Shown: piece after piece, positions 237 to 64,000 of the stretch | How the letters are laid out: each line of letters opens with the position of its first letter | How positions within the stretch are numbered: the first letter of the stretch is position 1 | Source of the DNA: a bacterium | GTDB lineage: Bacteria; Elusimicrobiota; Elusimicrobia; Elusimicrobiales; UBA9959 | Direction of reading: 5' to 3' | Length of the DNA stretch: 64,000 nt | NCBI GenBank assembly: GCA_021786295.1 | Contig: JAJYNO010000009.1 | Location: 35,977-99,976, forward strand | Notes under the pieces: model-generated | The model's database searches: none | Seen by the model: the letters and a program-made list of their open reading frames with translations, nothing else | What the model was told of the DNA's origin: nothing | Translations under genes and position numbers: made by a program

Positions 237-1418
237 ATGCTCATCTGGCTGCTTTCGGACTACGACCACAGGAAACACCTGGCCTTCAAGAGCCTGCTGG
301 GCCGTTTTTCCTCCGCCTTCCCCGAGACGCGGGCCGAGTTCTCCGTGAAGAGCCGCCGCAGCATGTGGGAGAGCCTGTTCGCCCACCTGCGCGACCCCAA
401 GCGCAACCCGATGGCCGACGTGGTAGAGATCCCGCAGAACTGGACGGAGCTCTTCTCCCGGCTCGGCATGCTGTCCGAGCTGGCCTCGGAGGTCGGGCCG
501 CTGGAACAGCGCCGTTACCCGGATTTCATCCTGAAGGAACTGTGCCGGCACGACGAGTCCCGCGCCTGGTCGGCGCCGTGGTGGCTGGAGGCCCCGGCCC
601 TCTTCTACCGGCCGCAGGCGGTCAGGGGGGGCGTGGACGCCCCGGCGGAACAGCTGGCCACCTGGGAGGGCTTCAGGGCCGCCCTGGACAAGGTGCGGGC
701 GCCTTCCCGCCGCGGGAACTTCCGCGCGCTTTCCGTGCCAGGCTCCTCCGGCTCGGTCTCGGTCTCCGACGTGCTGCCGCGCATGTGGGGCAGGCGCGGC
801 GGCCTTTTTTCCGACGATTTCAACCGCGCCACTTTCAACCGCGACGAGACCATCGGCGGAGTGGAGGACTGGCTGGAGCTGGCGGTCAGCGGCAAGATAG
901 AGCTCTTCAGCGCCGACCGCTTCGAGAACGGCCCGAGGCCGGCCGAGGACTGCGCCTTCATGATCTCGTCGCGCAAGCTGCCCGGGGCCGCGCGCGCCGG
1001 CCTGAGGATGCTCCCGTACCCGGGCTATCCTTCCGGCGGCGGCCTGGCGCTGGTCTACAACCTGGCCGTCTCCTCCTCCAGCCGCGGGCACGCCGCCGCC
1101 TCGGCCTTCGTCTCCTGGGCCATGGAGCCTCGCAACGCCTCCTATTTCGCCGAGAGCTTCGGGGTGTTCCCCTGCCTGAGGACGGTTTTCGAGGACCGCC
1201 TGCGCGAGGAGCGCGAGGCGGAGGTGTACCGGAGGCTTTTTTCCGCCCCGGAGCTGATGCCCAACATCATGGTCTACCCTACCGCGGAGCTGCTGCTGGA
1301 GCGGGCGCTGTGGAACCTGTCGCTGAAGATAGCGCGCAGGGACTACGACCGCGAGGACCTGCTGAGGGAGCTGATCATGGCGCAGGGAGAGGCCGACTAT
1401 CTGCTGTCGCTGTATTGA
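237..1418 (+). CDS. Extracellular solute-binding-protein fold (family 1-like) lacking a signal peptide
   Basis: 393 aa. Segments such as 'FPETRAEFSV', 'DVVEIPQNWTELFSRLGMLSEL', 'SAPWWLEAPALFY' and 'AASAFVSWA' resemble sugar-type SBPs. No N-terminal h-region or lipobox, and no ABC permease or ATPase nearby. Confidence 0.65.
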   Translation: MLIWLLSDYDHRKHLAFKSLLGRFSSAFPETRAEFSVKSRRSMWESLFAHLRDPKRNPMADVVEIPQNWTELFSRLGMLSELASEVGPLEQRRYPDFILKELCRHDESRAWSAPWWLEAPALFYRPQAVRGGVDAPAEQLATWEGFRAALDKVRAPSRRGNFRALSVPGSSGSVSVSDVLPRMWGRRGGLFSDDFNRATFNRDETIGGVEDWLELAVSGKIELFSADRFENGPRPAEDCAFMISSRKLPGAARAGLRMLPYPGYPSGGGLALVYNLAVSSSSRGHAAASAFVSWAMEPRNASYFAESFGVFPCLRTVFEDRLREEREAEVYRRLFSAPELMPNIMVYPTAELLLERALWNLSLKIARRDYDREDLLRELIMAQGEADYLLSLY

Positions 1419-1422: not shown

Positions 1423-2943
1423 ATGAAGAAGAACGGGAAGGAACTTTTCGCGCAGGCCGCCGGGGCCGTCCTCGAGGGCCGCGGGGCCTTCATGGCCGCT
1501 TCGCTGGAGGCCCTGGCCGAAAGGTTCTCGCTGGACGCCGCCTCCTATTACGAGTACGACGAGAAGACCGGGCTGCTGCGCCTGCTGCTGCGCCACGCTT
1601 CCGGGGTCTCGTTCGAGCACGAGGAGAACCTGCGCCCGCTGCCGGGGTCCGCCGCCGCCCGCGCGCTGGAGGGCCTGCAGGCGGTGTCCGCCAAGAGCCC
1701 GGCCGGCTGCTTCCTGTACTCCCCTTTCAGGCTCGACCACTGCGACCCGGCCGGAGGGCGCGGCGTGGTGCCGTGCTTCGGTCTGGTGCGCATGGAGCGC
1801 TCCCCGCGCCGCCGGCGCTTCTCCCCAGCGGAGGCGGCCAGGGCCGACGCGTACCTGCGCTCCTACCTGCGCGACTATTACAAGGCGGAGCTGCTCTCGC
1901 TGCACCGCAAATACGACAAGAACGTAGCCGCGATCACGGAGCTGACCGAGGTCTTCGCCACCGCGCTTCGCGTCAGCGACAGCTTCCGCCATATCCTCTC
2001 CGGCATCCAGACCTACTTCGGCTTCGACCGGGTGCGGCTGTACCTGATAGACGAAAAGAACCGCAAGCTGAAAGGCGAGCTCTCCGCCGACATCCGCGGC
2101 CAGGTCAAGAGCATCTCCTACGAGGAGATCCCGCTCGAGCCGGGGGCGCACCGCTTCGCCGACATCGTGCTGGGCAAGAGCTCCGGCGCGTTCATGGAGC
2201 GCTACAAGGACTGCGTGCTGTACATGCCCCTCGCCGTGCAGGGCGTGACGATAGGCCTGCTCATCGTCGACAACCTGCTCAGCCAGCAGAGGATAGAGCC
2301 GGAGGAACTGACGATGCTGAAGTCCTTCGGCGGCCAGATAGCGCTGGCCGTGGACAACTCCCGCCTGTTCGACAAGGTGGAGGAACTGTCCCTCTACGAC
2401 GAGCTGACGAAGCTGCCGCTGCGCCGTTATTTCAACCAGCGCTTCCAGGAGGAGTTCTACCGCGCGGAGCGTTTCAAGCAGCCGCTGGCCCTCGTCTGGG
2501 CGGACATAGACTATTTCAAAGAGGTCAACGACACCTACGGCCACCAGATAGGCGACAAGGTGCTGCGCGAGACCGGCCGCGTGATACTCGCCAACCTGCG
2601 CAAGATAGACTTCCCGTGCCGCTACGGCGGCGACGAGATCATCATCCTGCTGCCGCAGGCCACCGGCGAGGAGGCCAGGCGGCTGGCGGAGCGCCTCAGC
2701 CAGGAGCTCTCCGAACTGCGCATCCCGGTGCCCTTCTCCAAGGCGAAAGAGCTGCGCGTGACGCTCTCCATCGGCGTCTCCACCTTCCCCCAGGACGCCT
2801 CCTCTACGGACGCGCTGCTCGAGAAGGCGGACGACGCGCTCTACTGGGTGAAATCGCACGGCCGCGCCGGCATCGCGCTCTATTCCGACATGGCGGCGGA
2901 GAAGGAAAAGGCCGCCGGAGGAGGGGCTCATGCGCCCGTCTGA
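1423..2943 (+). CDS. GAF-domain diguanylate cyclase (GGDEI active site)
   Basis: GAF-like segments, 'YDELTKLPLRRYF', 'DIDYFKEVNDTYGHQIGDKVL', RxxD I-site (RKID), 'RYGGDEI', 'TLSIGV', 'ADDALYWVKSHGR'. Confidence 0.93.
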   Translation: MKKNGKELFAQAAGAVLEGRGAFMAASLEALAERFSLDAASYYEYDEKTGLLRLLLRHASGVSFEHEENLRPLPGSAAARALEGLQAVSAKSPAGCFLYSPFRLDHCDPAGGRGVVPCFGLVRMERSPRRRRFSPAEAARADAYLRSYLRDYYKAELLSLHRKYDKNVAAITELTEVFATALRVSDSFRHILSGIQTYFGFDRVRLYLIDEKNRKLKGELSADIRGQVKSISYEEIPLEPGAHRFADIVLGKSSGAFMERYKDCVLYMPLAVQGVTIGLLIVDNLLSQQRIEPEELTMLKSFGGQIALAVDNSRLFDKVEELSLYDELTKLPLRRYFNQRFQEEFYRAERFKQPLALVWADIDYFKEVNDTYGHQIGDKVLRETGRVILANLRKIDFPCRYGGDEIIILLPQATGEEARRLAERLSQELSELRIPVPFSKAKELRVTLSIGVSTFPQDASSTDALLEKADDALYWVKSHGRAGIALYSDMAAEKEKAAGGGAHAPV

Positions 2944-4345
2944 GGCCGGCGCCGCCGGGCCGCGCCGCGCGCGGCTCCCGGAAGGCCGGGCTCTCCTGCT
3001 GGGGGCGCTGCTGCTGGCCGCGCTGCCCGGCGTCTCGCTGGCGGTGTTCGAGGACCTTCCCGCCGGGGCCAGGCAGCTGGGGCTGGGGGGGCAGTCGGCC
3101 GCGCTGGAGGACGCTCTTTCCTTCTACGCCAACCCGGCCCTGCCGGGCTCCCGGCGCAAGTTCGAGACCGGCGGCCAGTTCCTCTCCTCCGACAGGACCA
3201 CGCAGGGGCCGGAGTCGGTCACGGCCTACGGGGCCTGGGCGGTAGTGCCGCGCATGGCCTACGGCAGGCTGGGCACCCTCACGCTGGGCTGGCTCGAGGA
3301 CGAGTACGGCGGCAGCCTGAAGCAGAAGACGCTCTCCCTGGGCTGGGGCACCTGGAACCTGATACGCGGCGATTCCGGGATGCTTGACTTCGGCGCCAAC
3401 TTCAAGGTGCTCAGCGCCTCCGACGGGCAGGACTCGGCCTCCGGCGCGGCGCTGGACCTCGGCGCGGCCTTCCGTCCCGACGGCAACCATACGCTCGGCT
3501 TCTCGATACTGAACGTCAACGCCCCGGCTTTCAACGTGGGCTCCCGCAAGGACCACGCCCCGCGCGTGGCGCGGCTGGCCGTCTCGGAGCGGCGGGAGGA
3601 CTATACGATCTCGCTGGACCTGGCGGCCCGCTCCGCCTCGGACGGCTACGGGGGCAACGTCAGTTTCGACCCGGGCGTGGAGCACGTCTGGCGTACCGAG
3701 CGCTCCGGGGCGTTCTATTCCCGGGCCGGCCTCAACCTGGCCGAGCGCGCCTCGGCGCTGAGCGCCGGCATCGGCTGGAAGCACGGCCCCTCCGAGCTCT
3801 CGTACGGCGTCGCGGTGCCGCTGACCGCGCCCGTCTCGGCGGCGCATTCGCTTACGCTTTCGCTGCGCTTCGGGGACCGCGACCTGGAGGACGACTACGA
3901 ACGCCTGATAAAGCGGGAGATAAAGTACCGCGAGGACCTGGTGGAGGCCCTGGACGAGTCCACGAAACGGGAGGGGATGCTGCGCGACGAGCTGGCCTCG
4001 ATGAAGGCGGAGATAGATTCCCTCAGCGCGCAGCTGCGCGGGGAGCAGGCGCAGAAGGCCAGCGTTACCAGCGAGAAGGAGCGCCTGGCCGCGATAGTGC
4101 GCAAGCAGCAGGCCGCCGAGGCCGAGCTCCAGGCGCTGGCCGCCAAGCGCAGGGCGGACAAGCTGAACCAGCTGCGCTACGGTTTCAGCCTGGACTGGGA
4201 GGCCTACCTCAAGCTGAAAGGGGGGGGCGCGCCGCCCGACGTGCTGAAGGCCTCGCTGCAGCGCATGATAAGCCAGTACCAGGATTCCGGGATCGACATC
4301 AGCCGGGCGACCGTGGAGCTGCAGGGGCTGCTGTCCGGCAAATAG
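2930..4345 (+). CDS. PorV/PorQ (UPF0164)-like outer-membrane beta-barrel with C-terminal coiled coil
   Basis: Signal peptide, family motif 'GARQLGLGGQSAALEDALSFYANPA', amphipathic beta strands ending 'LTLSLRFG', then ~150 aa of charged heptad helix. Confidence 0.7.
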   Translation: MRPSEAGAAGPRRARLPEGRALLLGALLLAALPGVSLAVFEDLPAGARQLGLGGQSAALEDALSFYANPALPGSRRKFETGGQFLSSDRTTQGPESVTAYGAWAVVPRMAYGRLGTLTLGWLEDEYGGSLKQKTLSLGWGTWNLIRGDSGMLDFGANFKVLSASDGQDSASGAALDLGAAFRPDGNHTLGFSILNVNAPAFNVGSRKDHAPRVARLAVSERREDYTISLDLAARSASDGYGGNVSFDPGVEHVWRTERSGAFYSRAGLNLAERASALSAGIGWKHGPSELSYGVAVPLTAPVSAAHSLTLSLRFGDRDLEDDYERLIKREIKYREDLVEALDESTKREGMLRDELASMKAEIDSLSAQLRGEQAQKASVTSEKERLAAIVRKQQAAEAELQALAAKRRADKLNQLRYGFSLDWEAYLKLKGGGAPPDVLKASLQRMISQYQDSGIDISRATVELQGLLSGK

Positions 4346-6233: not shown

Positions 6234-6263
6234 TTGATTTCATTATGCCGAAAATGGCAGAAT
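6234..6263 (+). promoter_or_regulatory. Putative sigma70 promoter TTGATT-N18-CAGAAT (extended TG)
   Basis: AT-rich intergenic region upstream of the FlgD-repeat gene. Confidence 0.35.
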
Positions 6264-6335
6264 TGGACAGTGATTTTTTGCCGGGAGGCGGCCGCGCCGC
6301 GCTCTTCGGCCTTATTTTTGGCACAGAGAGAGATT

Positions 6336-9300: not shown

Positions 9301-9662
9301 TGTGCGGGGATTTCACCAGTCAGACCTTCTTCGCGCCCAATCCCTACACCGGCACCTCGGGCTGGTTCCATATCCCGATAGAGATGAACGGCTTCGTTAC
9401 GCTGCGGATCTACAACATAGCCGGGGACCTGGTGTACAAGAAGGACTACGGCAGCCTCGGCAGCCCGCTCGGCGGGAACAGCGTGATAGACGGGAACGGG
9501 CTGTGCGTCACGTCGCACAACCCGGACAACGGCTGCTGGCCCAGGGTGAACACGTACGGCAGGACCGTGGCGCCGGGGGTGTACTTCGCCGTTCTCAGGT
9601 ACCAGGCCACGGAGGGGACGCGGGACGTCTGCCAGGTGGTGAAGAAGATCCTGGTGCCGTAG
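6336..9662 (+). CDS. Secreted multi-FlgD-Ig-domain protein with T9SS-type-A-like C-terminal domain
   Basis: Likely start ATG 6336 (MLKRPGLVLGAIALLMGLTASLSA signal peptide). Cys-rich N-domain, seven WDG motifs ('WDGRD..G..V..G.Y'), and C-terminal 'FAPNPY...IYNIAGDLV...VAPGVYF...VKKILVP'. Confidence 0.8.
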   Translation: MLKRPGLVLGAIALLMGLTASLSAQQLYISAIKAVYKEGGNGYCNDVNGDLTASDYDVSYVTSGGNPGQDSSRIEFERPTPKVNDIGSGGSCPGGYCYPNSCLALCAQLVCVSTDGYFGIDQLTFEIFKFGAGSNPLDPASTPPIRTISMYNIGMCNSDNNAQYYVNPGGTSDPTYYYCTPWDGYYNLNGIFGKTNGQFGFRATVKTNQVSQTAGNISIEQTAAFPGQSQFPIQVDVTDIHAVRSSPTVVGKITGVAAQPYNILYRLSKDSIVNMNVYDANTPGKLPEVRHLLVNAPRVGEGIPDGTLTNGDFWDGRDDSGNFVPAGNYITQIDAKTNGMWTGTTATEDLAWPATVQMSLDPLQVTDVAVKPLGASSTDMAVISYMLTEDATVYVDIYPPGTTFDNVNGYPPTVGGKVCTGAPGDACLRHFVDQKTRRATATTLWDGRDSAGSPVCDGNYVYAIYAEMPSSHIDPNTNLPIGNVTTSKTQIGTVPVARGSVVALMMPSSTVLDSTPTVAGLDPFYFRYTPARDAQVSLNILDMDGTTVVRHLVQNEERFANFSNKEQWDGKDDNGLYVSSGSYLAELVTTDPFQCSQQKVSTVTAVIPVDMWRTVNVQSTPLLGGTSDMATVGFELSQPMYIKLNVYPPTTVINPSVWPPVVGATPVYSVEGMRPGRFRITEYWDGRDTAGNMVEDGRYPFTLVTYSTGAAQTMYSTDRTYGYVDVTRGKIVFTDFEVIPTIPQMYNSSDTVKLPPYEIDYSLSRQSRVKIDILDANGGSTNGQTVATVVTEANGVRDGGLLYKDFWDGHYSTVDGNGNIIDGDFVPQGSYNVRITAKDIDIDPNLVSMATVQMTIDVDPLRIYDVSIVPLTLDNSAVVSYQVSEPMKVVVKVYKPGASVPPGDQDPPSGLVKRIIGVRPARTQISEYWDGTDLTLSKVPDGNYGFKIYASTVTTAISSIDGSATSAALLAPDVIVSNIPVTRGGTADLCGDFTSQTFFAPNPYTGTSGWFHIPIEMNGFVTLRIYNIAGDLVYKKDYGSLGSPLGGNSVIDGNGLCVTSHNPDNGCWPRVNTYGRTVAPGVYFAVLRYQATEGTRDVCQVVKKILVP

Positions 9663-20643: not shown

Positions 20644-20655
20644 CGGGCCCCGGGC

Positions 20656-20684: not shown

Positions 20685-20736
20685 GTATAACCGAGCGCGC
20701 CGCGGCGCGCCGCTGTCGTTCATTTTTGGAGGGAAC

Positions 20737-21827: not shown

Positions 21828-21846
21828 GGGAGACACGGAGGTTAAC

Positions 21847-59400: not shown

Positions 59401-62400
59401 GCGCACGTTCCAGTTCGACAACGTGCCGCCGCTCTCCGCCCCGGTGCAGCCGGGGCCGGATACGGCCTACAGCGGCCTCACCACCCTCTGGGGGACGGCC
59501 GCCGACGACGTCTCCGGCGTGGCCTCGGTCAAGGTCTCCATCCTAAGCGAGGACGCGACGGGCGGCCCCAAGTATTACGACGGCTCCGGCTTCAACAACG
59601 CGGCCGAGACCTGGCTGCCGGTGCAGAACCTCTATCCTTCCTCCTGGACCTACACCAGCGCCCTGCTGAGCTTCAGCGACACGATGCACTACGTCGTGAA
59701 GTCCTCGGCCACCGACTCCGTGGGCAACGTGCAGACCGTAGTCGGGGAGTCCCGCTTCCTGTTCGACACCACGCCTGCCACCTCGACGGTGCTGGCGCCG
59801 CTCAACGGCAACGTCTACGAGGACAACGAGTCCCTGATCGGCAACTACTACGACCCCGGCTACACTACCGGCATAAACGGGACCGGCTCGGGCGTCTTCC
59901 ATGACGCCTCCAACCCGTGGGGCAGGGGCCTGGTGGAGGTGGCTGTCTTCCGGGACACCTACCCCTACATGAGTTCCGTGGGGCCGCTGGTGTTCGGCCC
60001 CGGTTCCGGCTGGGACGACTCCGGCTATTTCTGGAACGGCTCTACGTGGACGGACGTCTCGGCGGGAGTGGTGTGGGTACCGGCCCAGTTCGATACGCAG
60101 CCGACCTGGGTCTACACCGCCCTGCAGTGCGCCAGCGACGCCCAGCGCGCCGCGCATACCTGCTGGGTGCGCGGCGACCGCTACGTGGTCTGGTCCCGCG
60201 CCACGGACAACGCGGGCGTTCTCGGCACCCCGCTGTCGGGTCCCAAGTTCTACATATCCGCCCCGGCCAAGAGCTTCAAGGTCTGGGTGGACGCCGGCCA
60301 GAACCCGATGACGGCGGGCGACATCGTGAACCTTAACGTGCAGGCCACGGACGCCGACGGGAACGTGGCCGCCGCCTATATCGGCACCGTCACGTTCCAG
60401 ATGGACTCAGGCCTCGGCCCGGAGGTCATGGGCGCCAACGCCGCCGAGGCCGTGGACGAACTGCACGGCCTGCCGCCGGAGTACCAGTTCCAGCCCTCCG
60501 ACTACGGCTTCAAGACCTTCCAGATGCGGCTGCGCAAGGCGGGCTCCAGGAGCCTGCTGGTCTCGGACCTTTACACGCCCAGCATAAACGGCAATTCCAC
60601 CCTCACGGTCAACCCGGCCGCGGCGCAGCAGACGCAGATCATCGCGGATTACGACCCGGCCGGGGAGATGCCGGCTCCGGGCACGGTCTCCGGCAAGACC
60701 GGAACCCCCAGGACCAAGCCCGCCGGGGCCAGCGTGCCGTTCCTGCTGCAGGTGACGGACAAGTACTGGAACGTCGTTCCGTCCTCCTCGGTCTCGCTGG
60801 GCGTGACCGATACCGACCCGAACAACTCGCTGGTCAGCCCCGACGGCCCGGCGGTCTTCGTGGGCTCGGCCACTATCAACCGGACCTTCGTCTCGGCGGA
60901 CAGCCAGGGCTGGAGCCTCCTCTGCAACGGCGCGGTCTCCAGCAAGGTCCCGGTGACCCCGAACCAGGCCGCGGGCCTGCTGGCGCTGATGCCGGGCGAG
61001 ACCAGGAACCAGGGCAAATACACCGTGCAGCCCTACGGCAAGGACGGCGTGGTGGCCGATCAGCTTGTCGGCTCCACGTTCACGGTCCGCGTCTACGCGG
61101 TGGACCAGTTCTACAACACCGACGTGTCCACGTCCTTCCCGGTCTCGGTGAGCATGCCGGGGGATAAATACGAGGTCAACCCGGCCCCGGCCCAGCTCTC
61201 CAACGGCACGACCAGTTTCGTGTTCACCCCTATCGTGGCCGGGACCCAGACCGTAGAGGCGCAGCAGGCCGGCGCCGGATACCTGAGCGGCGGCACTTCG
61301 TTCTACGTGACGCCCAACACGGTGAAGGTCTGGTGGGGCGGGCCGGCCCAGCTCAACCTGGTGGTTCCCGGCCAGACGCTGGAGCCGGGGCTGCCGCCTT
61401 ACGGCTCCAATCCCTCTCCGGGCGGGAAACTGGGCTCGCCTTCGCCGCTGACGGCCGGCGTCACGGTGCAGATGTCGGTCTACCTGACGGACCAGTACTA
61501 CAACGTCGTGCTGGGGACCACGCCTTTCATGGCGGTCTCCTCCAACACCCCGCAGGTGGAGATATCCTTCCCCAACGATCCCAACATCGCGGCCCGCGGC
61601 CTGCCGCCCTTCTCCGGAGGCTTCGATATCAGGAGCCTGATAGGCGGCTCCACCACGTTCAGCGTGATCCCGGTCACCCACGACGAATCCCCGGGCATGA
61701 CCGCGACGGTGTACGATACCGGGCTTACCGGCACCAATTTCAGCACCGACACCGTCACCGGGATAGTCGTGAAGTCGGCTCCCGCGACGCACCTGCTGCT
61801 GATGGTGCCGAACGAGGTCCCGGCAGAAGGCCTCATCGGCGGGAAATCCGGGACGGCCGGCCCGCTGACCGCCGGCTCCACCTACCAGATAACGGTGCGC
61901 GCCGTGGACGATTTCGGCAACCTGGCCAGCGACGGCCGCTCCGTCAGGATACAGTCCAACGACGTCTATGCCTCCACCTATGCGGCCGGCGCTCCCGCCG
62001 TTTTCCCGCCGCAGGCCCTGGCGAACGGCCAGACCGTCTTCAAGGGCTTCCTGCCCAGCGCCGCCACCGGCAACCTGGTGATAGACGCGGTCGACAACGA
62101 TACCATCTATCCCAAGCTTTCGACGAGCACCGACTCCGGCGTGACGGTCAGCCCGGGACAGGCTTCCCGCCTGATAGTGCTGCTGCCCACGCAGTCCCTC
62201 GTGCCCGGCAAGGTGCTGCCGCCCTACGGCACCGCCGGGAGCATCTCTACCCAGACCGCCGGCGTCGGCTTCAGCGCGCAGGTCTACGCCGCCGATTCCC
62301 GCTACAACATGGTCTCCGACGTCTCGCTGAACAAGACCATGCACGCGGTGGCCGACGACGCCTTCGGCGGTCCCTCCAGCAACGGGGACCTGGGGACCTT

Positions 62401-64000
62401 CAGCATGACGGCCGGCAGCGCCACGCTCTCCAACATCCTCCTGCGCACCGCCGGCTACAGGACCATCACCGTGACCGACCAGAGCGGCACCTACCCGGCT
62501 CTCGGCTCCACTCCCAGCGGCACGCTGACGCTGCAGCCGTATACCCCGACCAGGATCCGCGCGCTGCTGCCCGGAGAAAGTCCGGCCCCCGGCAACGTCG
62601 CCGCCAACGGCCGTTCCGGCGCCCCTACGGCGCAGCAGGCCGGCTCCACGTTCACGGTCACGGTGAACATAACCGACTCCTTCTGGAACCTGACGCCGGG
62701 GGCCAGCCAGGAGATACAGCTCTCGGCCGACGATCCCAACGCCGTAATAACGCCCTCCTCCCAGGTCGTGGTCGGCTCCGCCACCTTTACGGTGACCCCG
62801 ATACGGGCCGGCTACACCGTGCTGACCGCGGCGGTGGTCGCCCCCGGCCTGCCCGGAGGCCCTACGCTGGCCCAGGACGTCGCCAGCACGGTGCAGGTGG
62901 CGCCGGGGGTGCCCAAGCGCCTGCTGGTGCTGCTGCCGGGCCAGAACTGGCAGCAGGGGACGCTGTCCGGGGTAGGGGTCACGGGCACCCCGTCCGACAC
63001 GACCGCGGGCAGCACCGATTTCAAGGTGCGCGTCGGCGTGGTGGACAGCTACTTCAACCTCGTCCCGGGCCGGCCCGCGGACGTCAGGGTCAACACGCCT
63101 TCGGACCCGTTCGCGCCCGCGGTCAGCACGGCCGCCGTCAACACCGCCTACGGCTATACGGACCTGATCTACGTGACGCTGAGGCGCGCGGCGACACAGT
63201 ACCTGACGGCCACCGACTACGGCAACTCCGGCCTGGCCGACGACCCGGGCTCCTCCACCTTCACGGTCCGGCCGGCCGCCCCGGTGGGGCTGCAGCTGGT
63301 GCTGCCCGGGGAGCTGGCGGTGCCGGGCTCCGGCAGCTATCCTTCGGGCGGCAAATCGCTGACGGCCTCCACGCAGACGGCCGGGGTGACCTTCAAGGCC
63401 ACCGTCAACCTGGTGGACAGCTACATGAACGTCTACAACGGGCTTTCCGTAGGGCCCACGGTCTACCTGGTCACTTCGGACCTATACGACATCGACTCCT
63501 CGAGCGTGCCGCTGAACTACGGGACGGTGCAGGTCCCGCTGACGCTCGTCACCAGGTCGGCGGCCTCCACCGTCAAGGTCTTCCCGGTCAGCGCCGCGGA
63601 CAACCAGGTCTGCTCCGGCAGCTCCGGCGGGATATGCCGCAACGACAACGCGGCCGCCATGTCCTCGTTCAAGGTCTACGCCTCGACGGCGACGCGCCTG
63701 CTGGTGGTGCTGCCGGGACAGAGCCTGGTGGAGGGCAAGTGCAATATAAGCCCGCCCTGCGCTTCGGCCTCGGTGGCCTGGCCCGGCGTGAGCGGTCCGC
63801 CCTCGGCCCACACCATAGGCACGGGCTCGCTCTTCGCCGGCGTCTATCTCACCGACGCCTTCTTTAACCGGGCCACCGACGCGACCGGCTCCGCGCAGGA
63901 CACCAATCCTCCGGCTGTGATGCCCGAGGTGCGCGTTACCATGCCCAACGACCCCGGGGCCACCCCGCCCAGCCCGCAGACGCTCTCCAACGGCAGCTCG
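35423..64000 (+). CDS. Giant secreted Ig-like repeat surface protein/adhesin, >9,526 aa, 3' end beyond window
   Basis: ATG 35423 with signal peptide MRARGRTGLFRAAKKSLLLAGLSLFFSVPSLFTAAGA. The track lists no terminated ORF in this frame, and spot translations through to 64000 give coherent T/S/G/Y/W-rich repeats. It is absent from the track because there is no stop in the window. Confidence 0.93.
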   Translation, partial: MRARGRTGLFRAAKKSLLLAGLSLFFSVPSLFTAAGADTKTVQTISGADTVDWPASRKVLYEQGYGLTWVFFENAAGFSYSAFNGNSWTTPATAISAAEAGGGTNPMYGSVYYVAASSDVYVITTDPGPDLTGSPYNNVYMKKGRLNADGSITWGGLQTRTITGTVGGGTGDCYAGGGVDIALLGNETSGVTAWSCDAKRTGTSYRISVLGQDGMGTNLSGGSNFAVDAKDSNSEGAGPYKQFGSLVPVYDSGAWYMLNFQKDRSDYYGTLREHRYDNSGVYLARELAIAPTNTPGQDQWAYSAAAQPQSSIVHLVYTDNTGNLIYKRRAGPSSWPTTITLTTNGTSASPNYHPSVVFAAKDPGDPSSFDKVYVIYASTYGSVNYAVGSATAASISDFDMVSGLNWNQSAGGATSVQAPSFIQLPNPIPVAWNGSGGVQFDRLPTSSYSPPSVASASPLSVGIGAGVADYAGSSYYDITLNGSGFLNNPPPGVSFQSGGNPVSGITVSSVTYLSGTQVRASIAVDQSVGQGPVDLVVTNWDGRNGFATGIATVTVPSSALTSPVEPIDYSSGIVSFAGVSGFAPSGYAGAPTLATPQVRITRGDGYEWDGTQFVDPAVSGEQWRNATSGTANWLYSDWPPASQADGQSYVLTSRGKTSDRGYSTPSSNVTFTIDKLGPAVSYTFPAANSSNNSITAIQGTAADAGVGIQHVSMQLIDSGDNLFGNGNDLYWTGYPATGFLASSTWYYVVNNSAVPSENANYSCGTSCPYKSVNWIVKATPDSGGEPQLPSFIDGRKYRLQVESADKFNPDTYASSFDFYYDTTPPNVSVSVPAQLMPNQPVSMGDPSNVWRNNFDFLQGSLSDNVVDPVIGRRHVYYCVYEYGGTDKWGTGCAGPTPVYASALYAPSADPYSYSIAVSTNWQNGFWYHLAVYADDAAGNLDGSPLSPATSGYFYYDALPPNISITYPANNVNYGAGTMNALLGTSHDDHSGVATVQYRIEHPPLAKWSAASKTWIDQTAPIWNVAGTTTAIPFDTWQSSETAQAGQWLSGEQYTFIAQSLDKAGNYSASYSTTVFKYDTTPPVTLVLNPPPAGRYSDNQFTNIAGTANDMPDTTRQAGADMTCIGVQRQSDGLWWNGTALGWQSGRSDSCQTWSYNWAHQSMGGFWSTVGSTEAFNIYAWSQDMVQVPGPNVESSTTLKDSFIYDVLPPTSTLTSPQDNTWYSDQAGYQLSSIAGTAVDLPLTGPAAGGSISDMQVEVRDEVTLTCWNGSDFTGTCGSAATWKDMGLVAGSTYSYNTATLMAAAVENRPYRVTIRSMDNAMDLDNNPKPNVESSFTEGRNRSYFRVDRTPPSTLIQSPSASSVYVFSSLSGTAQDSYTQVQKVQVAYFSVTLQKWWNPASGSFDQGDGINPPPASAFVAASTTTANPVPWTVTGSSVPALTNGQSYLVFARATDSVGNQTAFPGYSGFTTPPNQSSLIEITKVTPLPSSVITTPPSGSPYYRPTDLTSISGTLSAATTVQVMITDLSVTPNQVWTPGGWVSTTTYLAGCTDSTYVIGQSTCGYFGVDTISLANWTKSTSGIWPAGTAEFSVKSRAASDADGITQLTPLPQRYFYIDGDDPATTLVDPAAAYERSLPVIDGTASDAGVGKVANVEVAISTGSGSYYWNGTSWQSGSPVWLPAAADDGAFDSNLEAWNLNSGLPVFQNSKTYEVQVRVTDMAGRQTLYPIPYQQFTIDTASPTAAIALPDGSHGINAMTALSGTAYDNALNQSVQVAIQQLGSPQLWFDGSGFNKLQTDPNWLYVANGVNGFLSPNATSWMYAPAGLDSAFPGGLQYLLLTRSTDVAGNIQTNFQVNISSRVVFVDKAPPVTSVTLPADDGDGVSGRYKSAYIGESLTSSRFYGSAADNFYAANNAGVEQTQMQLSYLSAGDTWYWLGTYFSSGTAAQNGSWLNASGVGSWIYPNDIAWPAGDREYTLEARSMDATRAADGTGTGNWETAFSQGQNVKKFIICDTPPDVAITTPTELSLTNDTNVYGTANGNLAGFSKAQVRISTGSGAAIRYWSGGSSAWVTNPETWNDSIRLGNTSWYYTIPASLLVEKTTYTVSARALDYAGNYSVTYSTRDFLNQRPSSFVQDPYKAAYNTLTQLDGYATDNTGVSAVAISIFNYDQNKCYDPSQPGAWKTVGCLSDNDAPWVAPQVSVWASSASWVYTVSDSTWTSGAHYRIRVKSMDQAGNWDVTYATATFQFDTEIPVSNVVYPSSGSYLPLSANPMTIQGTAFDGFSGLNQVNFYLQRSDGWYWNGIGWQGTAIALNGDAPYSGWSKQITNSAAYIDGEQYSITSWATDNAGNQESPAVKSMFVYDVTPPTSTITYPYDGGYISQTGMVTGGSYDPPHGMTGDVRVRIKALSGPNAGYYWRVSDSSWTLQNAPEVWNSVASYGSLSSGATWWQLNTAPWQTGETYEVNSYAVDKAGNAEVVYSTATNIKADFTPPVSTVTLPAQGATYGDVPLPQLTGTAYDSSPGQVDHVYVQFGYLPSGQGGAITNTFDGQSWQANGATWLPVSSVTLSAGNWTYNVPDSVWNWNNSWYTVRAYAVDKAGNVEGTIWRSDFYYSAPFPVTAISAPADGSYTNTLPQKVSGTASKFTYSSLSGVQVSVERKSDGFYWYGSSFSAPGSMQSAPRVYFNASDVSVLGDGSLYWDWTSNISTSGWTDNTSYYFLSKGYGPAGPEQTADLVGNTVIYDATPPNTAVAVPAAAIYQNMPQLSGTASDTPPGLVSYAQITIQDLTYPATYWNPATGAWQNSVVWATTTLNSGNWSVGAGLPAWTDGTWYRVTPKAADMAANVQTGGSVDFLIDRTTPTADISSFVALNSTVTAVNGQVRSSLNSLIGTAWDNAGPGGGAGVLDKVLLHITRPSQPGTSLRYWRWDTGAWDASQPADSDIYWATATVSVPGVTASSWTIAGLPPPGAYIQGDSYIIMSRAKDTALPAGNTQQAFVDGFSSFTVVWDVNPPSVVLTSYGDTLGTGRINPGGDWTLYGTAYDSPGGVTSVTNVKLRIARLEGATTYYWTGLDWGTTPSEVQPDAFTPPNWDYTLPAAQLPSDEKYMLFTRGIDNAVPPNSGSFGAETDVILDTTPPLVQITSPTALAEGSPFSIYGTADASLAGQNYTQIRFSTGTGLSTQYWTGAGWTAAPDTWIQTVKLGDTSWYYTLPAAMLASDVSYTASARTLDYAGNYSAVYSTYVFTYDTVPPYVTLSFPADGAAYSNIKVSTPIAGTSNQNDQTNPYSKVSAVYVQVKDLSNTTCFDGSAFSACPSWQLAGGTLDNWSYNSPSLGFIGNRQYYIEAKAVDYAGNESAHAAATIKFDVDKPTSTITYPLQGYTTGFTQVRGQAADAADTYRADLGTYTVNVAFQLVGGSWWNGSAFTAADPVWYQAYADTSPYNIGKTTVTWSYNLPAALSVYLADPGNQNSNYRVVSWCYDLALNPEYGPPGAQPKTGDVPAGDGVTLTYDNQKPVSYITLPSLASYNSLPSITGTSGDSVGVAIKQTWITVYMPALGKYYDPSLSPPWSPPGSDENSAPWLSPQETVYQSSSSWTYAIQDSTWTSGATYRIRARALDVAGNYDTVYTTATFLYDNQAPISTVTVPADGANLNYMPAQLQGTSYDPGSSGVSSIALYITRDSDGQYWNGINGWSPTPQMLTASPPFDNWTSAINPAMFTGNDGVRFYVQTNARDAAGNQEGYGVKSSFVYDVTPPTSTIAYPYNNGYISQTGNINGGSYDRPDGMVRDELVRIQDINPSSANYLKYYSVAGSSWTSAVTANSALNYGSLSPGATWWQLNAAPWQSGETYEISAWAADKAGNFQVTYATATAVKADFTPPTSTVTYPVNGVDVHSELTSISGSASDVPPGMLDKVLVSYYCEDTNYPAIYGKYWNSADAAWDSSNPVFYPAAINGDTWYTTGASTPTWYNNKNGVWYRVFAKAVDQAGNAVADPGQALPDSPEIHFRLFPPPPVSYIITPPAGVPNYSAVPTISGTAVYATTVAVRIIDYGPDLTYNSGNDDLVWDGTAWVSTSTAWATTVGYLGVDSFSAPNWSITVPSWNGNRRYRVISRAYDGVNDVYETVTPDQGNEFILDTSNPAAGVTAPSTTYLHSLNALAGTASDVAPGTVVSGYFRVKRQASAQYWNWQASTFTALSGQYTDLTAVPSWNSTLGVYLLNYTTDYFQSGAAFEPNQSYVAQLSVTDKAGNAGSAADMPFTIDVASPTAYITIPYDANNSGIRRMDSISGTAADNFANANVSIAIQEQDYHLWYSNSAQGFVSSAQPIWISLLNNTSGYLSASATSWTYAPAGFDSRFSAGSDGDTYLVLARAQDMAGNVQDQFASPVSSTVIKIDKAPPSSYFAFPADDSGAGTGRYNSSSLGFVNGTAADNYYTVNNAGVAEVELRLSYLQGGTTYYWDGSNFVSGGGFDTTAWQPITPSGSAPVWSWVYAHPVTMPGDREYRAEARAMDDARLDDDTGDGNWQVNYTTVNFIVDDTPPLVAVTTPTASALSQLQGIGGTADASIAGFSGAQVRISTSSGASYWNGSGWTSSPVWLNAAKLGNTSWYYTVDQAMLQDNAVYTVEAMAKDYAGNYSSVYSTYTFTYDTTGPSVSVSYPVNGAAYSGVLTSTPIAGSSSSSQSAPNTGVSTVAVAISELDSLNHYIDCFDGSAFSACASPVWLPAQSAGGSNWQFNSPALSFADDHKYHVEARAQDVAGNYSAVQGVDFRYDVDPPTSTIVSPGSGYINAWSQITGYAWDNYNNNRVYDAGFGTYTVLVAIRRVGGSWWTGSAFNGGGPSWLEASVDTSAYSQGYTTYTWTYSMPSALQTAIVSARTNDYYVVPWSYDLALNPEYGPANGQPAAGDIPAGVGRIVHFDNDVPVAVATSPVNISAQNNVPYIYGVATDTGVIAGVQVLVKARGSWNAEWDGGTTGTNSDWDNTSYAYWSTATLTNGAWSLALPPLNPVNNYKLSVWARAYDLAGNWQATPTNTQILNNQNADGSAAYYFDYDTTLPQTGVTAPDRYALNVATGMIAGTAFDAGIEPSGVAYVYLRLHRSDGAYWHFINGNWTDATASDNFLAGFGSPWAEPITPSSQDDGYRYDVYTLAVDNAQNNSAKQYFSTFTFIVDETPPASRITFPANNSFIGAVPAITGTADDSVEDLHGWTAPRDFESGISSSTGVQVALQRLTDGLWWDGAGFTLSSRQWNPVSFSGTSSGTWSYSLPAGAIADGTTYYAMSRSQDIAGNLETQYTTNYFTGDVTPPVSMAYAPSGTTASVPQIVGTAWDTPPGQLKTTNMVMLSLKEVDPVVSCYDNGLNLFVACPGGLYPNNRIWFTTGTLTVSPDPTQLSTWTWNTSAIGWTNSAQYNVIALAIDKAGNQKAYGTVENPDISFTLVTPQAMATIATPLGPDDKNYMATDIPSVSGTGSNLRAVDSVQIRLERLIGSTSWWYEPSLSWVSQDTWTWYSSSDQSWQQHISSVAFSVDNASYTFVVTPYNSTGQTGTDATRRVVIDNTKPVGSILYPGTPYINAMGVLYGTATDPNNITQPSLQKDFGGDVYVRIKNVENGYYWTGSSFTATVTNIETSYSPQTVVSWSTATAVTAGLQDGQRYQVLLLPKDKAGNMESNESAMPSYQVLYDTNPPSAYFSFPGNRQVLRSLTAITGTAYDPIGAYSPYMKSDLNNVQLQIYDEQGVKWWADGAGGFTITGSSFNVVSGTDTWSYSPPNLVSALTSGKYYVIQAMATDRAGNQQTGFTDVVSSRVFIWDTTPPTSAIAQPADQGTYMPGALTGVNALSGTATDSPLPFVGVRLSTPQVNLSYIDGGTTYYWTGSSFSSYTVTFDGAWQDAIGTDTWHYPFDGANWVSDKLYTLYVRAFDLAEPLGPNGGNEQNPWTVHQFVVDGTPPVSRITVPQDGSFIQNSLPAISGTSYGGLSGLASPPSGLKLRISHVIGAQTYYWSGTAAGGWSTTPVDLPVNYTASASTITWSYPPATYDPPDISTNNHVYTVSVAGLDKAGNQEAYNSVNVTSDFNYPSISISTPMAGADAFYGAARPTGQLAGDSLDAPAGVAPPITTEITDLSESGAVKPKWDGAAWSVVNSTWLAVSGLSPWSYSPPAWPANKRFRVELYAVDNAGNQVPPGTYVREFIYDVNTPSSTILSPSSIYQNASQVASFSGTAVDWVNSPSTEAMSGLAPQGVQVQIVDNSQTGVTFNGTGFASGDYWRNAQFTPTSQITDAVLGVNIVQAADWSYPPAGDSWPPALVQGHSYTVRSRALDRAGNQENYQERTFTYDASAPTTTITMPGNFAYASLPLSSGTLREDYSYVPPGGIQLLFKRNSDSQYWTGSGWGAFAAADWLDATSVYQSSWTYADAALSNYFNTLSGSLDFTEYIRGTDAAGNTNLPQTPAPSGGVVFKMDHFVPVSLTTYPATGNGQLVFRNTPVSALAGTASDYDPGSPSGLNGVYVRIRRYDSGGTPCYYDQTFGNWVTAAGGSEWMPQNAGTLSAWAKSLPATAFSGSNGGDCYPGLDKGDGFRFEVQSYAVDNTQPVNGGPNTEVNYSTASFLLDYSTPTAAILQPADQSYLRNIYQLAGTAADPVAGGGIPSGLASIEYELTDTDANPNRYWNFNALQWQTAYVSSVTAPAANWTVTSIPNNNPSGNDSWAVGRSSATFQLRIKVSDKAGNYSGFANNVSTFTLDLLPPDSQITSPPTQNGYYLAVSSITGTAADYNSGVSTVALSVQQDNTQDADCTNTGNNSYYWNGSSWQGGQVWLPVNSYNPVGGSWRYDDASKIVFNAYCYYVVMSSAVDNVGNGQVTWGSRRFKFTPPPAVTRVLVPANGVYYRNLSQVSGTANVNTQSVWLNARRLQDNDYWNFGSSSWQVAFSSVQVIPAAGAWTFASSLPPLVTNSSYTFTAVGLNGSGVFEAAPVTNQVYFDTTPPVSLVLLPSQTQLYYNSLPKLGGTAQDPPGVSPPASGVSGVWVRIQETTGPYSGDYWDNSASAYTPTQTDNKAAYYVAASSWDFTVSYPTAAFTDGAGYTAQSYSLDNTYDNGTFKGTQSPLSAPVVFNYDVSAPTATVTSVSPGQARSAVSVASGAVQETMVLSNFGQPPGTQISEVRLHLRYNNVNSYWSGSGWVPAAPATYFDAQVFQSSWTSAALPVWADAGSYTLWAEAIDKAGNDQTNFTANGSSVTFTVDSSAPVVAVLNPVPGSKISSVASVTGTANDPNWSTNSGIAGASNVQVQVSYLYGGSTYYYDNALSFSSYTLGDTNSWWPATNWAAQGASSGTWTYAPAGLSSAMVGDRVYKFRARAQDNAVPVPNPAVLTDNAASNSGVIYDVTPPVSRITLPKDGSKIRSLSAITGTALDNLAGISTLGQISVSIAALSPVAGNWNGASPGDFSLPSETFQPLSGGSLAATYDGLNWSFTAPALSDGYTYLMKVKASDDVTPPNVETNVSSVTFTYDITPPAAAIVSPVSLPNSGANLNALASVSGTAFEQFTLKSASVSVQEDDTHLYYDAQTSTFNSVTQKWLTAGISGTGPNYTWTVPAPPLTDNKNYNLQVTAIDAAGNQLTPPSATVIRYDVTPPVSQPVAPANGSFINKLASVAGTASDPNSNPSGVAGTQIRVQRNSDGKFWTGATWGSETWLSGVPGTAWTKSSQLPPSDNNVGLTDGNVYTVTSRSYDVAANTQSVILAGTSFMFDVSSPTAFVQLPLNGARYNALPQLSGTAADANNVTFPQVRIYDIPLGKYWMTGTGTCGGVTLPGWVGNTCPAFPEIWNVAVGSSATGAPFTWSYDSSGVAWPNRDAGLRVDLKAQDAAGNYSVTSSTFSFDNVPPSSLILYPPVDGTTYSSMTAISGTSYDLTSAINEVDIRMWYLSGGTTYYWNPVAPHWTASDPGWFSIPDGPGSKGIDNPWTYSDPNYDFDDPGTNNFAWKEGTNDHANGKLFYIVTRAIDSTTNDQVVLATRTFQFDNVPPLSAPVQPGPDTAYSGLTTLWGTAADDVSGVASVKVSILSEDATGGPKYYDGSGFNNAAETWLPVQNLYPSSWTYTSALLSFSDTMHYVVKSSATDSVGNVQTVVGESRFLFDTTPATSTVLAPLNGNVYEDNESLIGNYYDPGYTTGINGTGSGVFHDASNPWGRGLVEVAVFRDTYPYMSSVGPLVFGPGSGWDDSGYFWNGSTWTDVSAGVVWVPAQFDTQPTWVYTALQCASDAQRAAHTCWVRGDRYVVWSRATDNAGVLGTPLSGPKFYISAPAKSFKVWVDAGQNPMTAGDIVNLNVQATDADGNVAAAYIGTVTFQMDSGLGPEVMGANAAEAVDELHGLPPEYQFQPSDYGFKTFQMRLRKAGSRSLLVSDLYTPSINGNSTLTVNPAAAQQTQIIADYDPAGEMPAPGTVSGKTGTPRTKPAGASVPFLLQVTDKYWNVVPSSSVSLGVTDTDPNNSLVSPDGPAVFVGSATINRTFVSADSQGWSLLCNGAVSSKVPVTPNQAAGLLALMPGETRNQGKYTVQPYGKDGVVADQLVGSTFTVRVYAVDQFYNTDVSTSFPVSVSMPGDKYEVNPAPAQLSNGTTSFVFTPIVAGTQTVEAQQAGAGYLSGGTSFYVTPNTVKVWWGGPAQLNLVVPGQTLEPGLPPYGSNPSPGGKLGSPSPLTAGVTVQMSVYLTDQYYNVVLGTTPFMAVSSNTPQVEISFPNDPNIAARGLPPFSGGFDIRSLIGGSTTFSVIPVTHDESPGMTATVYDTGLTGTNFSTDTVTGIVVKSAPATHLLLMVPNEVPAEGLIGGKSGTAGPLTAGSTYQITVRAVDDFGNLASDGRSVRIQSNDVYASTYAAGAPAVFPPQALANGQTVFKGFLPSAATGNLVIDAVDNDTIYPKLSTSTDSGVTVSPGQASRLIVLLPTQSLVPGKVLPPYGTAGSISTQTAGVGFSAQVYAADSRYNMVSDVSLNKTMHAVADDAFGGPSSNGDLGTFSMTAGSATLSNILLRTAGYRTITVTDQSGTYPALGSTPSGTLTLQPYTPTRIRALLPGESPAPGNVAANGRSGAPTAQQAGSTFTVTVNITDSFWNLTPGASQEIQLSADDPNAVITPSSQVVVGSATFTVTPIRAGYTVLTAAVVAPGLPGGPTLAQDVASTVQVAPGVPKRLLVLLPGQNWQQGTLSGVGVTGTPSDTTAGSTDFKVRVGVVDSYFNLVPGRPADVRVNTPSDPFAPAVSTAAVNTAYGYTDLIYVTLRRAATQYLTATDYGNSGLADDPGSSTFTVRPAAPVGLQLVLPGELAVPGSGSYPSGGKSLTASTQTAGVTFKATVNLVDSYMNVYNGLSVGPTVYLVTSDLYDIDSSSVPLNYGTVQVPLTLVTRSAASTVKVFPVSAADNQVCSGSSGGICRNDNAAAMSSFKVYASTATRLLVVLPGQSLVEGKCNISPPCASASVAWPGVSGPPSAHTIGTGSLFAGVYLTDAFFNRATDATGSAQDTNPPAVMPEVRVTMPNDPGATPPSPQTLSNGSS
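37085..60258 (+). repeat. ~60 tandem Trp-rich bacterial Ig-like repeats (~115-165 aa each)
   Basis: Recurring 'D.tpP.s.i..P....isGTA.D..sgv..V.v......yWnG..W....W...g...Wsy....g..Y....rA.D.AGN.....f.yD'. Counted by eye from the D-x-x-P boundaries. Confidence 0.85.
60259..64000 (+). repeat. ~10 repeats of a second Ig-like type
   Basis: Recurring 'L.vllPG....PG....G..GtP...tAG..f.v.V..vD.y.N' at ~350-450-nt spacing. Confidence 0.75.

Follow-up and report, generated by a model that had tools for sequence, protein, structure and literature searches.

The giant adhesin gene and its neighbours

The stretch of DNA analysed here, referred to below as the window, comprises 64,000 nt (bases 35,977–99,976 of the 133-kb contig JAJYNO010000009.1) of the Elusimicrobiota genome assembly GCA_021786295.1 (order Elusimicrobiales, UBA9959), which totals 2.30 Mb in 37 contigs and is 79 % complete. 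Every gene assigned in the window lies on the + strand (Table 1). Module A joins a Tad/Flp pilus locus to a diguanylate cyclase, a PorV-family barrel and a protein with a C-terminal domain (CTD) like that of type IX secretion system (T9SS) cargo. In module B, which begins at 34,169, a giant adhesin gene lies between two cyclic di-GMP (c-di-GMP) riboswitches and is followed, past the window end, by genes for a further PorV-family barrel, a FliF/FliG fusion and the stator proteins MotA and MotB. A sequence-only reading of the window had listed a co-oriented island with a GAF-GGDEF cyclase, two PorV-like barrels, a protein with a T9SS-like CTD, a Tad machine with three atypical parts, a DsbA-like protein, several regulators sharing one promoter motif, a GEMM-I riboswitch and an immunoglobulin (Ig)-repeat protein of more than 9,500 aa. 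All of these were found in the sequence, although the DsbA-like protein is a weak match under its cut-off, the Ig-like matches are weak, one of the atypical Tad parts is widespread in many phyla, and the promoter motif, while enriched, lies ahead of operons generally and not of regulator genes alone.

Cut-offs were 90 bits for NF033709 (PorV_fam), 23 bits for TIGR04183 (Por_Secre_tail) and a gathering score of 35 for the riboswitch model RF01051. Own-genome hidden Markov models (HMMs) were built from the PorV paralogs and CTDs of the window's genome. The three families of the order are referred to as f1, f2 and f3, and the closest relative as G001.

The giant open reading frame (ORF) continues beyond the window to the equivalent of position 73,810 and encodes 12,795 aa in total. 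Its N-terminus carries a signal-like segment, its Ig-like matches are to the Pfam families Big_13, Big_3_2, Big_3_3 and Big_3_4, and its last 100 residues form a CTD of the kind seen in 18 other ORFs of the genome (19.5 bits with TIGR04183, under the cut-off, and 73.4 bits with the own-genome CTD HMM). The protein is 57 % identical to a 13,124-aa protein of G001. The N-terminus diverges even in this relative, where the first 1,200–1,500 residues differ, and for the N-terminal 800 aa no orthologue was found in three relatives, which returned weak repeat matches alone. In G001, riboswitch 1 is also separated from the giant gene by an extra 11-kb gene set (C43:56161-67587, loci L096–L097); judging from first residues, our impression is that two of the products are radical-SAM-like, one is a membrane protein, one is HEAT-like and two are possibly glycosyltransferase-like. 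GC skew ranges from -0.07 to -0.16 along the giant gene (36001–64000) and is near zero before it, which probably reflects the Ser/Thr/Ala/Gly-rich composition of the protein.

Riboswitch 2 (c-di-GMP-I, 61.2 bits) starts 122 nt past the adhesin stop, ahead of the gene for a PorV-family barrel with a TPR tail (PorV-TPR). It is preceded by the string TTGACA-N13-TGCTATA, identical to that ahead of riboswitch 1. A role for this string as a shared regulatory motif was considered and dropped; because it occurs in six copies in the genome, one of them ahead of an rRNA operon, it is read as a plain strong promoter. Riboswitch 1 is followed by a terminator-like expression platform, whereas no clear platform emerged from folds of the riboswitch 2 leader. 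The pairing of riboswitch 1 with the HEAT-repeat gene is conserved in genome G030. Control of the adhesin gene by a c-di-GMP riboswitch is supported by these leader sequences, and may act in either direction, ON or OFF. In the available parts of the sources, c-di-GMP riboswitches are described as controlling adhesins and pili in Clostridioides difficile and Bacillus thuringiensis (CbpA), where a c-di-GMP-I aptamer likewise lies in the leader of a large adhesin gene (PMC6200980, PMC7423583). Unlike those cases as described there, the two aptamers here bracket a single 38-kb gene, the second stands ahead of a barrel and motor module, and the riboswitch–barrel–motor arrangement is conserved across a diderm phylum.

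The genes past riboswitch 2 encode, in order, PorV-TPR, the FliF/FliG fusion, a proline-rich coiled-coil protein of 828 aa, MotA, MotB and a lipoprotein. PorV-TPR scored 111.8 bits with NF033709 and gave weak FadL/Toluene_X matches. MotA scored 210–235 bits with the MotA, MotP and PomA models and 98.4 bits with MotA_ExbB, and MotB carries MotB_plug and OmpA domains. The FliG-like protein (655 aa) combines FliG middle and C domains with a TPR tail (FliG 117 bits; Pfam FliG_C 98.1 and FliG_M 40.8 bits). The FliG domains come after a signal peptide, a periplasmic part of about 200 residues and a single transmembrane helix. Its whole-protein model had a mean predicted local distance difference test score (pLDDT) of 70.6 and a predicted template-modelling score (pTM) of 0.30. 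The FliG middle and C domains matched 1qc7_B (TM-score 0.96) and 8ucs_H, FliG bound to MotAB (TM-score 0.93, root-mean-square deviation (rmsd) 1.2).

The periplasmic domain was modelled separately (mean pLDDT 66.7, with residues 55–123 under 50). By VIA-align it was nearest to the third ring-building motif (RBM3) of the FliF MS-ring (Z 11.4, rmsd 4.2, 113 residues aligned), with further matches at Z 11.1 and 9.9 and with EscJ (8.6) and PrgK (8.2). In Foldseek, 17 of the 18 top ranks were FliF entries, at weak E-values of 4e-4 to 0.09. The YscJ_FliF_C family (PF08345) matched 5/5 paralogs scanned at E 0.0015 or better, two of them above cut-off, and did not match the window genome's own fusion. 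On these predicted structures, the FliG-like protein is a FliF(RBM3)–FliG fusion. It shares with the flagellar motor the FliG middle and C domains, the RBM3-like FliF domain and flagellar-type MotA and MotB with plug and OmpA domains. In contrast to that motor, the FliF and FliG parts form one chain with a signal peptide, a single transmembrane helix and a TPR tail, the FliG N domain is absent, charges of the torque helix are lost, and several copies per genome lie beside a PorV barrel.

CTD proteins, PorV-family barrels and the Tad/Flp pilus locus

In the genome as a whole, 23 PorV_fam matches were found in about 20 places, with the NF033709 cut-off reached at 14. Of 14 Por_Secre_tail matches, 13 exceeded the TIGR04183 cut-off, showing the C-terminal sorting domain of T9SS cargo in 13 ORFs. 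By the own-genome HMM, 19 ORFs end in a CTD, and a PorV gene follows on the same strand within 349 bp in 13/19. The pairing of a CTD gene with a downstream PorV gene holds as a rule throughout the genome and is not specific to the island. The PorV equivalog model (NF033710) scored 34–43 bits in the genome against a cut-off of 250 bits.

Module A contains one such pair. The CTD of its FlgD-Ig protein scored 30.7 bits with CHU_C (cut-off 27) and 75.3 bits with the own-genome CTD HMM, and the barrel gene starts 30 nt after the CTD gene. Eleven orthologues of this barrel were found, at identities of 36–74 %. The sequence-only reading had suggested modelling each barrel with the CTD; for this barrel the complex reached an ipSAE of 0.73 against 0.44 for the best control, a mark reached by 58/80 solved complexes and 2/110 mismatched pairs, with a partner pLDDT of 65 or more and with 87 % or more of the contacts common to runs. 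The CTD of the FlgD-Ig protein is thus predicted from the model to dock to this barrel, and would do so in the cell. In some relatives the Tad-linked FlgD-Ig/CTD gene is tandem-duplicated (loci L146, L150 and L014), and an additional paralog of 1,218 aa is present in G001.

The other barrel in the window, which has a C-terminal coiled coil, covered positions 5–275 of the own-genome PorV HMM with a barrel at about residues 40–314; it scored 24.8 bits with NF033709, under the cut-off, and has orthologues in G001, G002 and G030. The neighbouring 580-aa coiled-coil protein also has orthologues in relatives. The diguanylate cyclase has the active-site motif GGDEI and an RxxD I-site, RKID, five residues upstream. 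The solute-binding-protein-like gene that opens the module is syntenic in G001 and in f2 loci.

The CpaF/TadA ATPase, TadB/C platform protein, CpaB, secretin and TadE all scored above their cut-offs, which identifies a Tad core. Flp pilins are defined by a G-x4-EY-like motif; three small ORFs carry such a motif followed by a hydrophobic helix, Flp1 and Flp2 among them without an NCBIfam match. No A24 prepilin peptidase was found in the island, and the best match in the 79 % complete genome (contig C33) scored 23.3 against 26.5 bits; controls for this search were positive in 12/14 genomes. The fusion of CpaE to CpaF was present in 41/41 relatives. Its best match was an Elusimicrobiales metagenome-assembled genome (MAG) at 91 % identity, followed by two more Elusimicrobia MAGs at 58 %. 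Near-full-length matches were also observed in MAGs labelled Omnitrophota, Bdellovibrionales, Firmicutes, Actinobacteria and others; the fusion is therefore widespread across phyla and not specific to the island.

The clustering of Flp-like, TadE-like, CpaB, secretin, CpaF/TadA and TadB/C genes resembles that of Tad/Flp (type IVc) pili such as the Caulobacter Cpa and Aggregatibacter Tad systems. Unlike those pili, the present locus has a secretin of 240 aa, CpaE fused to CpaF and one fused platform protein, lacks a prepilin peptidase within the island, and has a CTD protein and a PorV barrel as fixed members across the order. The Kil system of Myxococcus is likewise a Tad-like machine with unusual accessory genes, a likeness drawn by description only; none of the genes assigned here was recognised as linked to predation.

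The regulators of module A follow the Tad genes. The pattern AACA-N7-AACA has six matches in the window against 0.42 expected, a number reached by 0/100 shuffles; all six are intergenic and on the + strand, and they are six of the genome's 22. This repeat, with its 11-bp spacing, sits at the -35 position just upstream of -10-like elements at six operon starts. Its sites precede the solute-binding-protein-like gene (200–214), the 580-aa protein gene (4358–4372), the operon starting at 19545 (repeats at 19438–19463), the kinase set (23725–23739) and the third Flp-like gene (27739–27753), the last of these, ending at 27,753, being the last in the window. The sites ahead of the 19545 operon and the kinase set are conserved at the orthologous places in G001, and another site lies ahead of a CTD gene on contig C30. 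Direct repeats at 11-bp spacing suit an OmpR/PhoB-type regulator, and we infer that the repeat could be the site of the island's own OmpR-type regulator.

Three genes separate module A from the riboswitch 1 leader, encoding a short FtsH-like protease, a 419-aa protein and an S41 protease; the set is syntenic in G001. A perfect 29-nt inverted repeat (29820–29848 and 29906–29934, with 57 nt between the arms) takes up the space separating the second TadE-like gene from the FtsH-like gene, and may form a strong hairpin or serve as a recombination site.

Table 1. Features assigned in the window, with the evidence for each
Feature	Position	Strand	Evidence or remark
Module A	237-29,822	+	GGDEF cyclase, FlgD-Ig/CTD protein, PorV-family barrel, Tad/Flp pilus, regulators
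Solute-binding-protein-like gene, first of module A	237..1418	+	SBP_bac_8 22.7 bits, under cut-off
GAF-GGDEF diguanylate cyclase	1423..2943	+	GGDEF 155.7, GAF_3 38.6, TIGR00254 168.9 bits
PorV-family barrel with C-terminal coiled coil	2930..4345	+	Own-genome PorV HMM 60.5 bits, E 3.3e-19
580-aa coiled-coil protein	4469..6211	+	No Pfam family; weak SMC-like coiled-coil NCBIfam matches
FlgD-Ig repeat protein with T9SS-like CTD, 1,142 aa, end KKILVP	6234..9662	+	FlgD_ig 85.1 bits
PorV-family outer-membrane barrel	9693..10670	+	NF033709 72.8 bits, E 3.6e-20; own-genome HMM 210.7 bits
Flp-like pilin genes 1 and 2	10679-10888, 10931-11125	+	Motifs GQTAIEYLL, GQNTVEYLL; conserved in relatives
TadE	11216-11719	+	TadE 40.4 bits, above cut-off
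CpaB	11795-12550	+	RcpC 62.9 bits; TIGR03177 95.5 bits (cut-off 71)
Short secretin, 240 aa	12563-13285	+	Secretin 141.3 bits, above cut-off
CpaE/MinD-like and CpaF/TadA ATPase fusion, 738 aa	13359..15575	+	T2SSE 215.3, CbiA 36.6 bits
TadB/C-type platform protein	15572-17161	+	T2SSF 67.2 bits, above cut-off
TPR protein	17343-19418	+	TPR_2 49 bits; candidate start
376-aa protein and 125-aa membrane protein	operon 19545..23659	+	376-aa protein: no Pfam/NCBIfam match
OmpR-type regulator	21030-21827	+	Trans_reg_C 87.7 bits
REC protein	21847-22221	+	Response_reg 96.9 bits
DsbA-like protein	22223-23659	+	DSBA 22.5 bits (cut-off 25.6), weak
dCache-HAMP histidine kinase, REC-histidine kinase, LuxR-type response regulator	23784..27675	+	Pfam domains
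Third Flp-like gene	27840-28055	+	Repeat D8, 81 % identical to Flp2
386-aa membrane protein	between third Flp-like and second TadE-like genes	+	No Pfam/NCBIfam match
Second TadE-like gene	29238-29822	+	TadE 18.6 bits, weak
Short FtsH-like AAA/M41 protease, 419-aa protein, S41 C-terminal processing protease	29934..34172	+	AAA 135.7, Peptidase_M41 104.3 bits; 419-aa protein: no family match in Pfam/NCBIfam scans; Peptidase_S41 97.8 bits
Near-consensus sigma-70 promoter with extended -10, for riboswitch 1	34169..34196	+	11/12 hexamer positions
c-di-GMP-I (GEMM-I) riboswitch aptamer 1	34335..34413	+	RF01051 55.7 bits
Long hairpin then seven U, terminator-like expression platform	34460..34527	+	RNA folds
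HEAT-repeat protein	34549..35391	+	HEAT_2 90.3 bits
Giant Ig-like repeat adhesin ORF	35423..64000 (window end)	+	First 9,526 of 12,795 residues

Conservation of the two modules and recurrence of the motor genes

The order of the genes for the CTD protein, PorV, Flp1, Flp2, TadE, CpaB, secretin and CpaE–CpaF was fixed in 3/3 and 8/8 loci, giving 11/11 across families f1, f2 and f3 at identities down to 30–40 %. The cyclase and binding-protein genes lay upstream of this core wherever the fetched stretch reached, and G001 retains the entire module A island. Adjacency of modules A and B was judged in the eight genus genomes with enough contiguity, contig breaks intervening in the others. In seven of them a single contig carries the CpaE–CpaF gene, both riboswitches (1, then 2) and the FliF/FliG gene in that order; in G001 the order holds as far as the PorV-TPR gene, where the contig ends. 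A distance of 35–53 kb separates the two riboswitches in genus genomes.

The sequence-only reading had proposed one co-regulated apparatus for attachment. In its fullest form, the Tad pilus, both barrels, the CTD protein and the adhesin would be a single attachment or contact-killing machine under one programme. The co-orientation of the genes, the 74-kb order intact in all eight genomes just described, and a cyclase at one end with c-di-GMP riboswitches at the other, which could link the parts, are consistent with this. Against it, the AACA promoter repeat ends well before the adhesin, whose promoter is of a different type, and family f2, which has small genomes, retains the Tad island in 14/14 genomes with the riboswitch in 0/14 and no FliG-TPR orthologue, weak TPR-region matches being returned in 5/14. 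The riboswitch–PorV–FliF/FliG module is also present as multiple paralogous copies within a genome, and it recurs in 20 genomes of the phylum (in which Tad genes were not looked for), and nothing that was found points to contact with prey or host. We therefore regard a single machine as unlikely. The part of the proposal that links the CTD protein, PorV, the Tad genes and the cyclase through conserved order and a common repeat held; the adhesin stands apart, with its own promoters lacking the AACA repeat and its own downstream partners (PorV-TPR, FliF/FliG and MotAB), and lies beside the Tad island within the genus only. Modules A and B are probably two adjacent, separately regulated modules tied by c-di-GMP, that is, neighbours that may couple through this messenger and not one machine.

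Flagellar genes were searched for in 26 genus genomes, 16 of which are at least 90 % complete. Both FlhA (PF00771) and flagellin (PF00669) were found in 0/26, and the searches were positive in four flagellated controls (4/14 genomes). In a sample of 151 genomes from the phylum, FliG_C was present in 57 and FlhA in 4, and most FliG_C matches lay in ORFs of 470–860 aa, against some 335 aa as a rule. Many motAB and fliG homologues in free-living Elusimicrobiota are described in a preprint on magnetotactic members, with flagellar structural genes absent and the role of the homologues unclear (10.1101/2022.07.08.499144). The available part of that preprint does not tie them to PorV, CTD proteins or riboswitches, nor does it mention a FliF–FliG fusion. 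The literature searched, which did not extend to subscription journals, held no account of the present system.

The motor genes recur beside PorV genes. A second set in the window's own genome has a FliG-like gene, MotA and two MotB genes next to a PorV gene, and about 3 kb away lies a CTD gene. The seven-gene order was conserved at 4/4 orthologous loci in four relatives, and among 16 paralogous loci in relatives PorV was present at 14, MotA together with MotB at 13 and a CTD ORF at 11. Across the phylum (20 loci from 20 genomes), the PorV gene directly adjoined the fusion gene at 18, one of the two misses being a locus (L161) whose upstream side was not covered; a CTD ORF was present at 16 and MotA with MotB at 12. 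A riboswitch of the c-di-GMP-I clan, with one or two aptamers, immediately preceded the PorV gene, or a small CTD ORF ahead of it, at 12 of the 14 phylum loci covered by the riboswitch search. The FliG-like paralogs number 2–7 per genome and are intact, most matches having no internal stop.

Among close relatives, a c-di-GMP-I aptamer was found in 22/24 genomes of the genus and 2/2 of family f3, in contrast to its absence from f2. Many genus genomes have a third, longer c-di-GMP-I aptamer of 90–93 nt (for example, G015:C41:22144-22233 and G021:C9:114475-114567), whose locus was not seen in the window's assembly. Two tandem aptamers of this clan precede a small CTD ORF and PorV gene at loci L164 and L167, and the GGC-variant model RF03167 scored best at several phylum loci.

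These counts bear on the possibility that the genes share no function, the barrels being FadL-like transporters or porins, FliG and MotAB the leftovers of a lost flagellum, and the adhesin an ordinary biofilm adhesin. The PorV_fam scores of the window barrels, the FadL/Toluene_X matches of PorV-TPR and the divergence of the torque-helix residues would all fit such an explanation. It is difficult to reconcile with a PorV gene directly after 13 of 19 CTD genes, with the recurrence of PorV and riboswitch beside the fusion gene across the phylum, with several intact FliG-like paralogs per genome and with a docking model that passed its controls; decaying relics are unlikely to be duplicated and conserved in order across families. 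We consider it the least probable of the explanations weighed here.

Relation to type IX secretion, gliding and the flagellar motor

The best explanation of the locus, and one that we somewhat favour, is of two modules with T9SS-like export and a motor-linked adhesin. Under this explanation, Sec would carry the adhesin out of the cytoplasm, and a T9SS-like route, made up of a distant SprA-like translocon and a cargo-specific, CTD-binding PorV barrel, would pass it through or hold it at the outer membrane. A FliF/FliG ring with MotAB stators would supply proton-motive energy for secretion or movement of the adhesin, a role analogous to that of GldLM in Bacteroidota. The FlgD-Ig protein of module A would dock through its CTD to a private PorV-family barrel. 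A more specific claim, that Elusimicrobiota possess an undescribed envelope machine in which a FliF(RBM3)–FliG ring turned by MotAB, a PorV barrel and c-di-GMP riboswitches serve the export or movement of a CTD adhesin, is offered tentatively and is on balance doubtful.

The question of whether a true T9SS exists had been raised by the sequence-only reading as a search for SprA. An SprA-like protein of 1,803 aa is encoded elsewhere in the genome (TIGR04189 140.4 bits, E 3.9e-41, in three stretches), and homologues were found in 4/4 Elusimicrobia genomes tested, with a Gemmatimonas control at 639 bits. SprA_N (PF14349) had no match in the genome and none in any control either. The search therefore returned an SprA-like protein, albeit under its cut-off, and no sortase domain of PorU was found in the 79 % complete genome. 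In the Bacteroidota T9SS (notably SprB, type B CTD cargo that the adjacent PorP/SprF-like barrel SprF anchors, with power from the GldLM/PorLM motor), as here, the C-terminus of large surface proteins is a beta-sandwich CTD, a giant outer-membrane protein of the SprA type is present, and an ion-driven, stator-type motor is encoded nearby. The systems differ in that the private barrels here belong to the PorV/PorQ family and not to PorP/SprF-like proteins, in that the motor candidate is FliF/FliG with MotAB in place of GldLM, and in the SprA-like score, PorU and Gld results given below. The T9SS is described as confined to the Fibrobacteres–Chlorobi–Bacteroidetes (FCB) group in the available parts of two reviews (PMC12398890, PMC11205867), and Elusimicrobiota lie outside that group. 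The system is called T9SS-like here and is not filed as a T9SS.

Locus L105 of genome G000 (C31:46939-54878), 6 kb from the SprA-like gene, encodes a CTD protein and its PorV, then a protein of 272 aa and one of 1,542 aa that ends in an FGE-sulfatase domain (26.9 bits), which we take to be the fold family of GldK/PorK.

Several observations weigh against T9SS-like export with a motor-linked adhesin. The 140 bits of the SprA-like protein compare with a cut-off of 200 bits for a model of 2,319 positions. PorU (NF033707) was matched over its CTD alone (model positions of about 950–1094), in 3/5 genomes and never above cut-off. GldL and GldM (TIGR03513 and TIGR03517) were found in 0/5 genomes and GldK (TIGR03525) was unmatched in the window's genome, two relatives giving FGE-sulfatase-type matches of 66–69 bits; since the SprA-positive control genome was silent as well, absence of GldL, GldM and GldK is not established. 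Neither window protein of the docked pair reaches the curated cut-offs set for PorV_fam and Por_Secre_tail. Solved PorV–cargo complexes exist, and the docking score may reflect resemblance to them; the docking alignments were our own and shallow (11–12 rows). The terminator of riboswitch 1 folds with or without a forced aptamer (-93.4 vs -91.5 kcal/mol), and co-regulation is suggested by motifs alone. Modules A and B are adjacent within the genus only and lie on separate contigs in G030.

The motor raises points of the same kind. Aligned to Thermotoga maritima FliG, the fusion has lost three of the four torque-helix charges checked, with SQG for SKR, KEI for KDE, EVT for PVR and EDPW for EHPQ; the equivalents of R281, D289 and R297 are G, I and T, and that of D288 is E (numbering that we take to be that of Escherichia coli FliG). 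The phylum loci were chosen by their FliG match and so measure the surroundings of FliG-like genes and not the reverse. In the window's genome the motor adjoins just 2 of about 20 PorV genes; a motor in cis is therefore unneeded for most CTD–PorV pairs. Finally, the assembly is incomplete, and the gene calls are our own ORF choices in DNA of 65 % G+C.

The role of the motor could also be one of gliding, in which the FliF/FliG ring and MotAB would move the adhesin along the surface, as GldLM does SprB in Flavobacterium, and would not serve export. A giant repetitive CTD adhesin, an adjoining barrel gene and an ion-driven motor within one locus would suit such an engine, as would the failure to find FlhA or flagellin in the genus and, as reported in the available part of the preprint, the motAB/fliG homologues of free-living Elusimicrobiota that lack flagellar structural genes (10.1101/2022.07.08.499144). 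No track or parts like GldJ, GldK or GldN were found, however, the GldK search being one with a silent control, and the loss of torque-helix charges and the fact that each genome has several paralogous motors, every one with a barrel of its own, also argue against gliding. Moreover, c-di-GMP induction as a rule goes with attachment more than with movement. We judge gliding improbable and prefer T9SS-like export with a motor-linked adhesin.

For the pilus, the fixed position of a CTD-protein/PorV pair within the Tad locus points to a new accessory of type IVc pili. For the motor, a conserved operon joins T9SS-like cargo and barrels to a FliF/FliG fusion with MotAB, and to c-di-GMP riboswitches, in a phylum in which few sampled genomes carry flagellar export genes. 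To our knowledge the flagellar rotor–stator pair is known from flagella only. If the proposed role is correct, the system would be an independent counterpart, outside the FCB group, of the T9SS and gliding motor, and a second use of that pair. It would also offer a role, open to testing, for the motAB and fliG homologues treated as enigmatic by the preprint in its available part (10.1101/2022.07.08.499144), and would bear on the evolutionary reuse of rotary motors.

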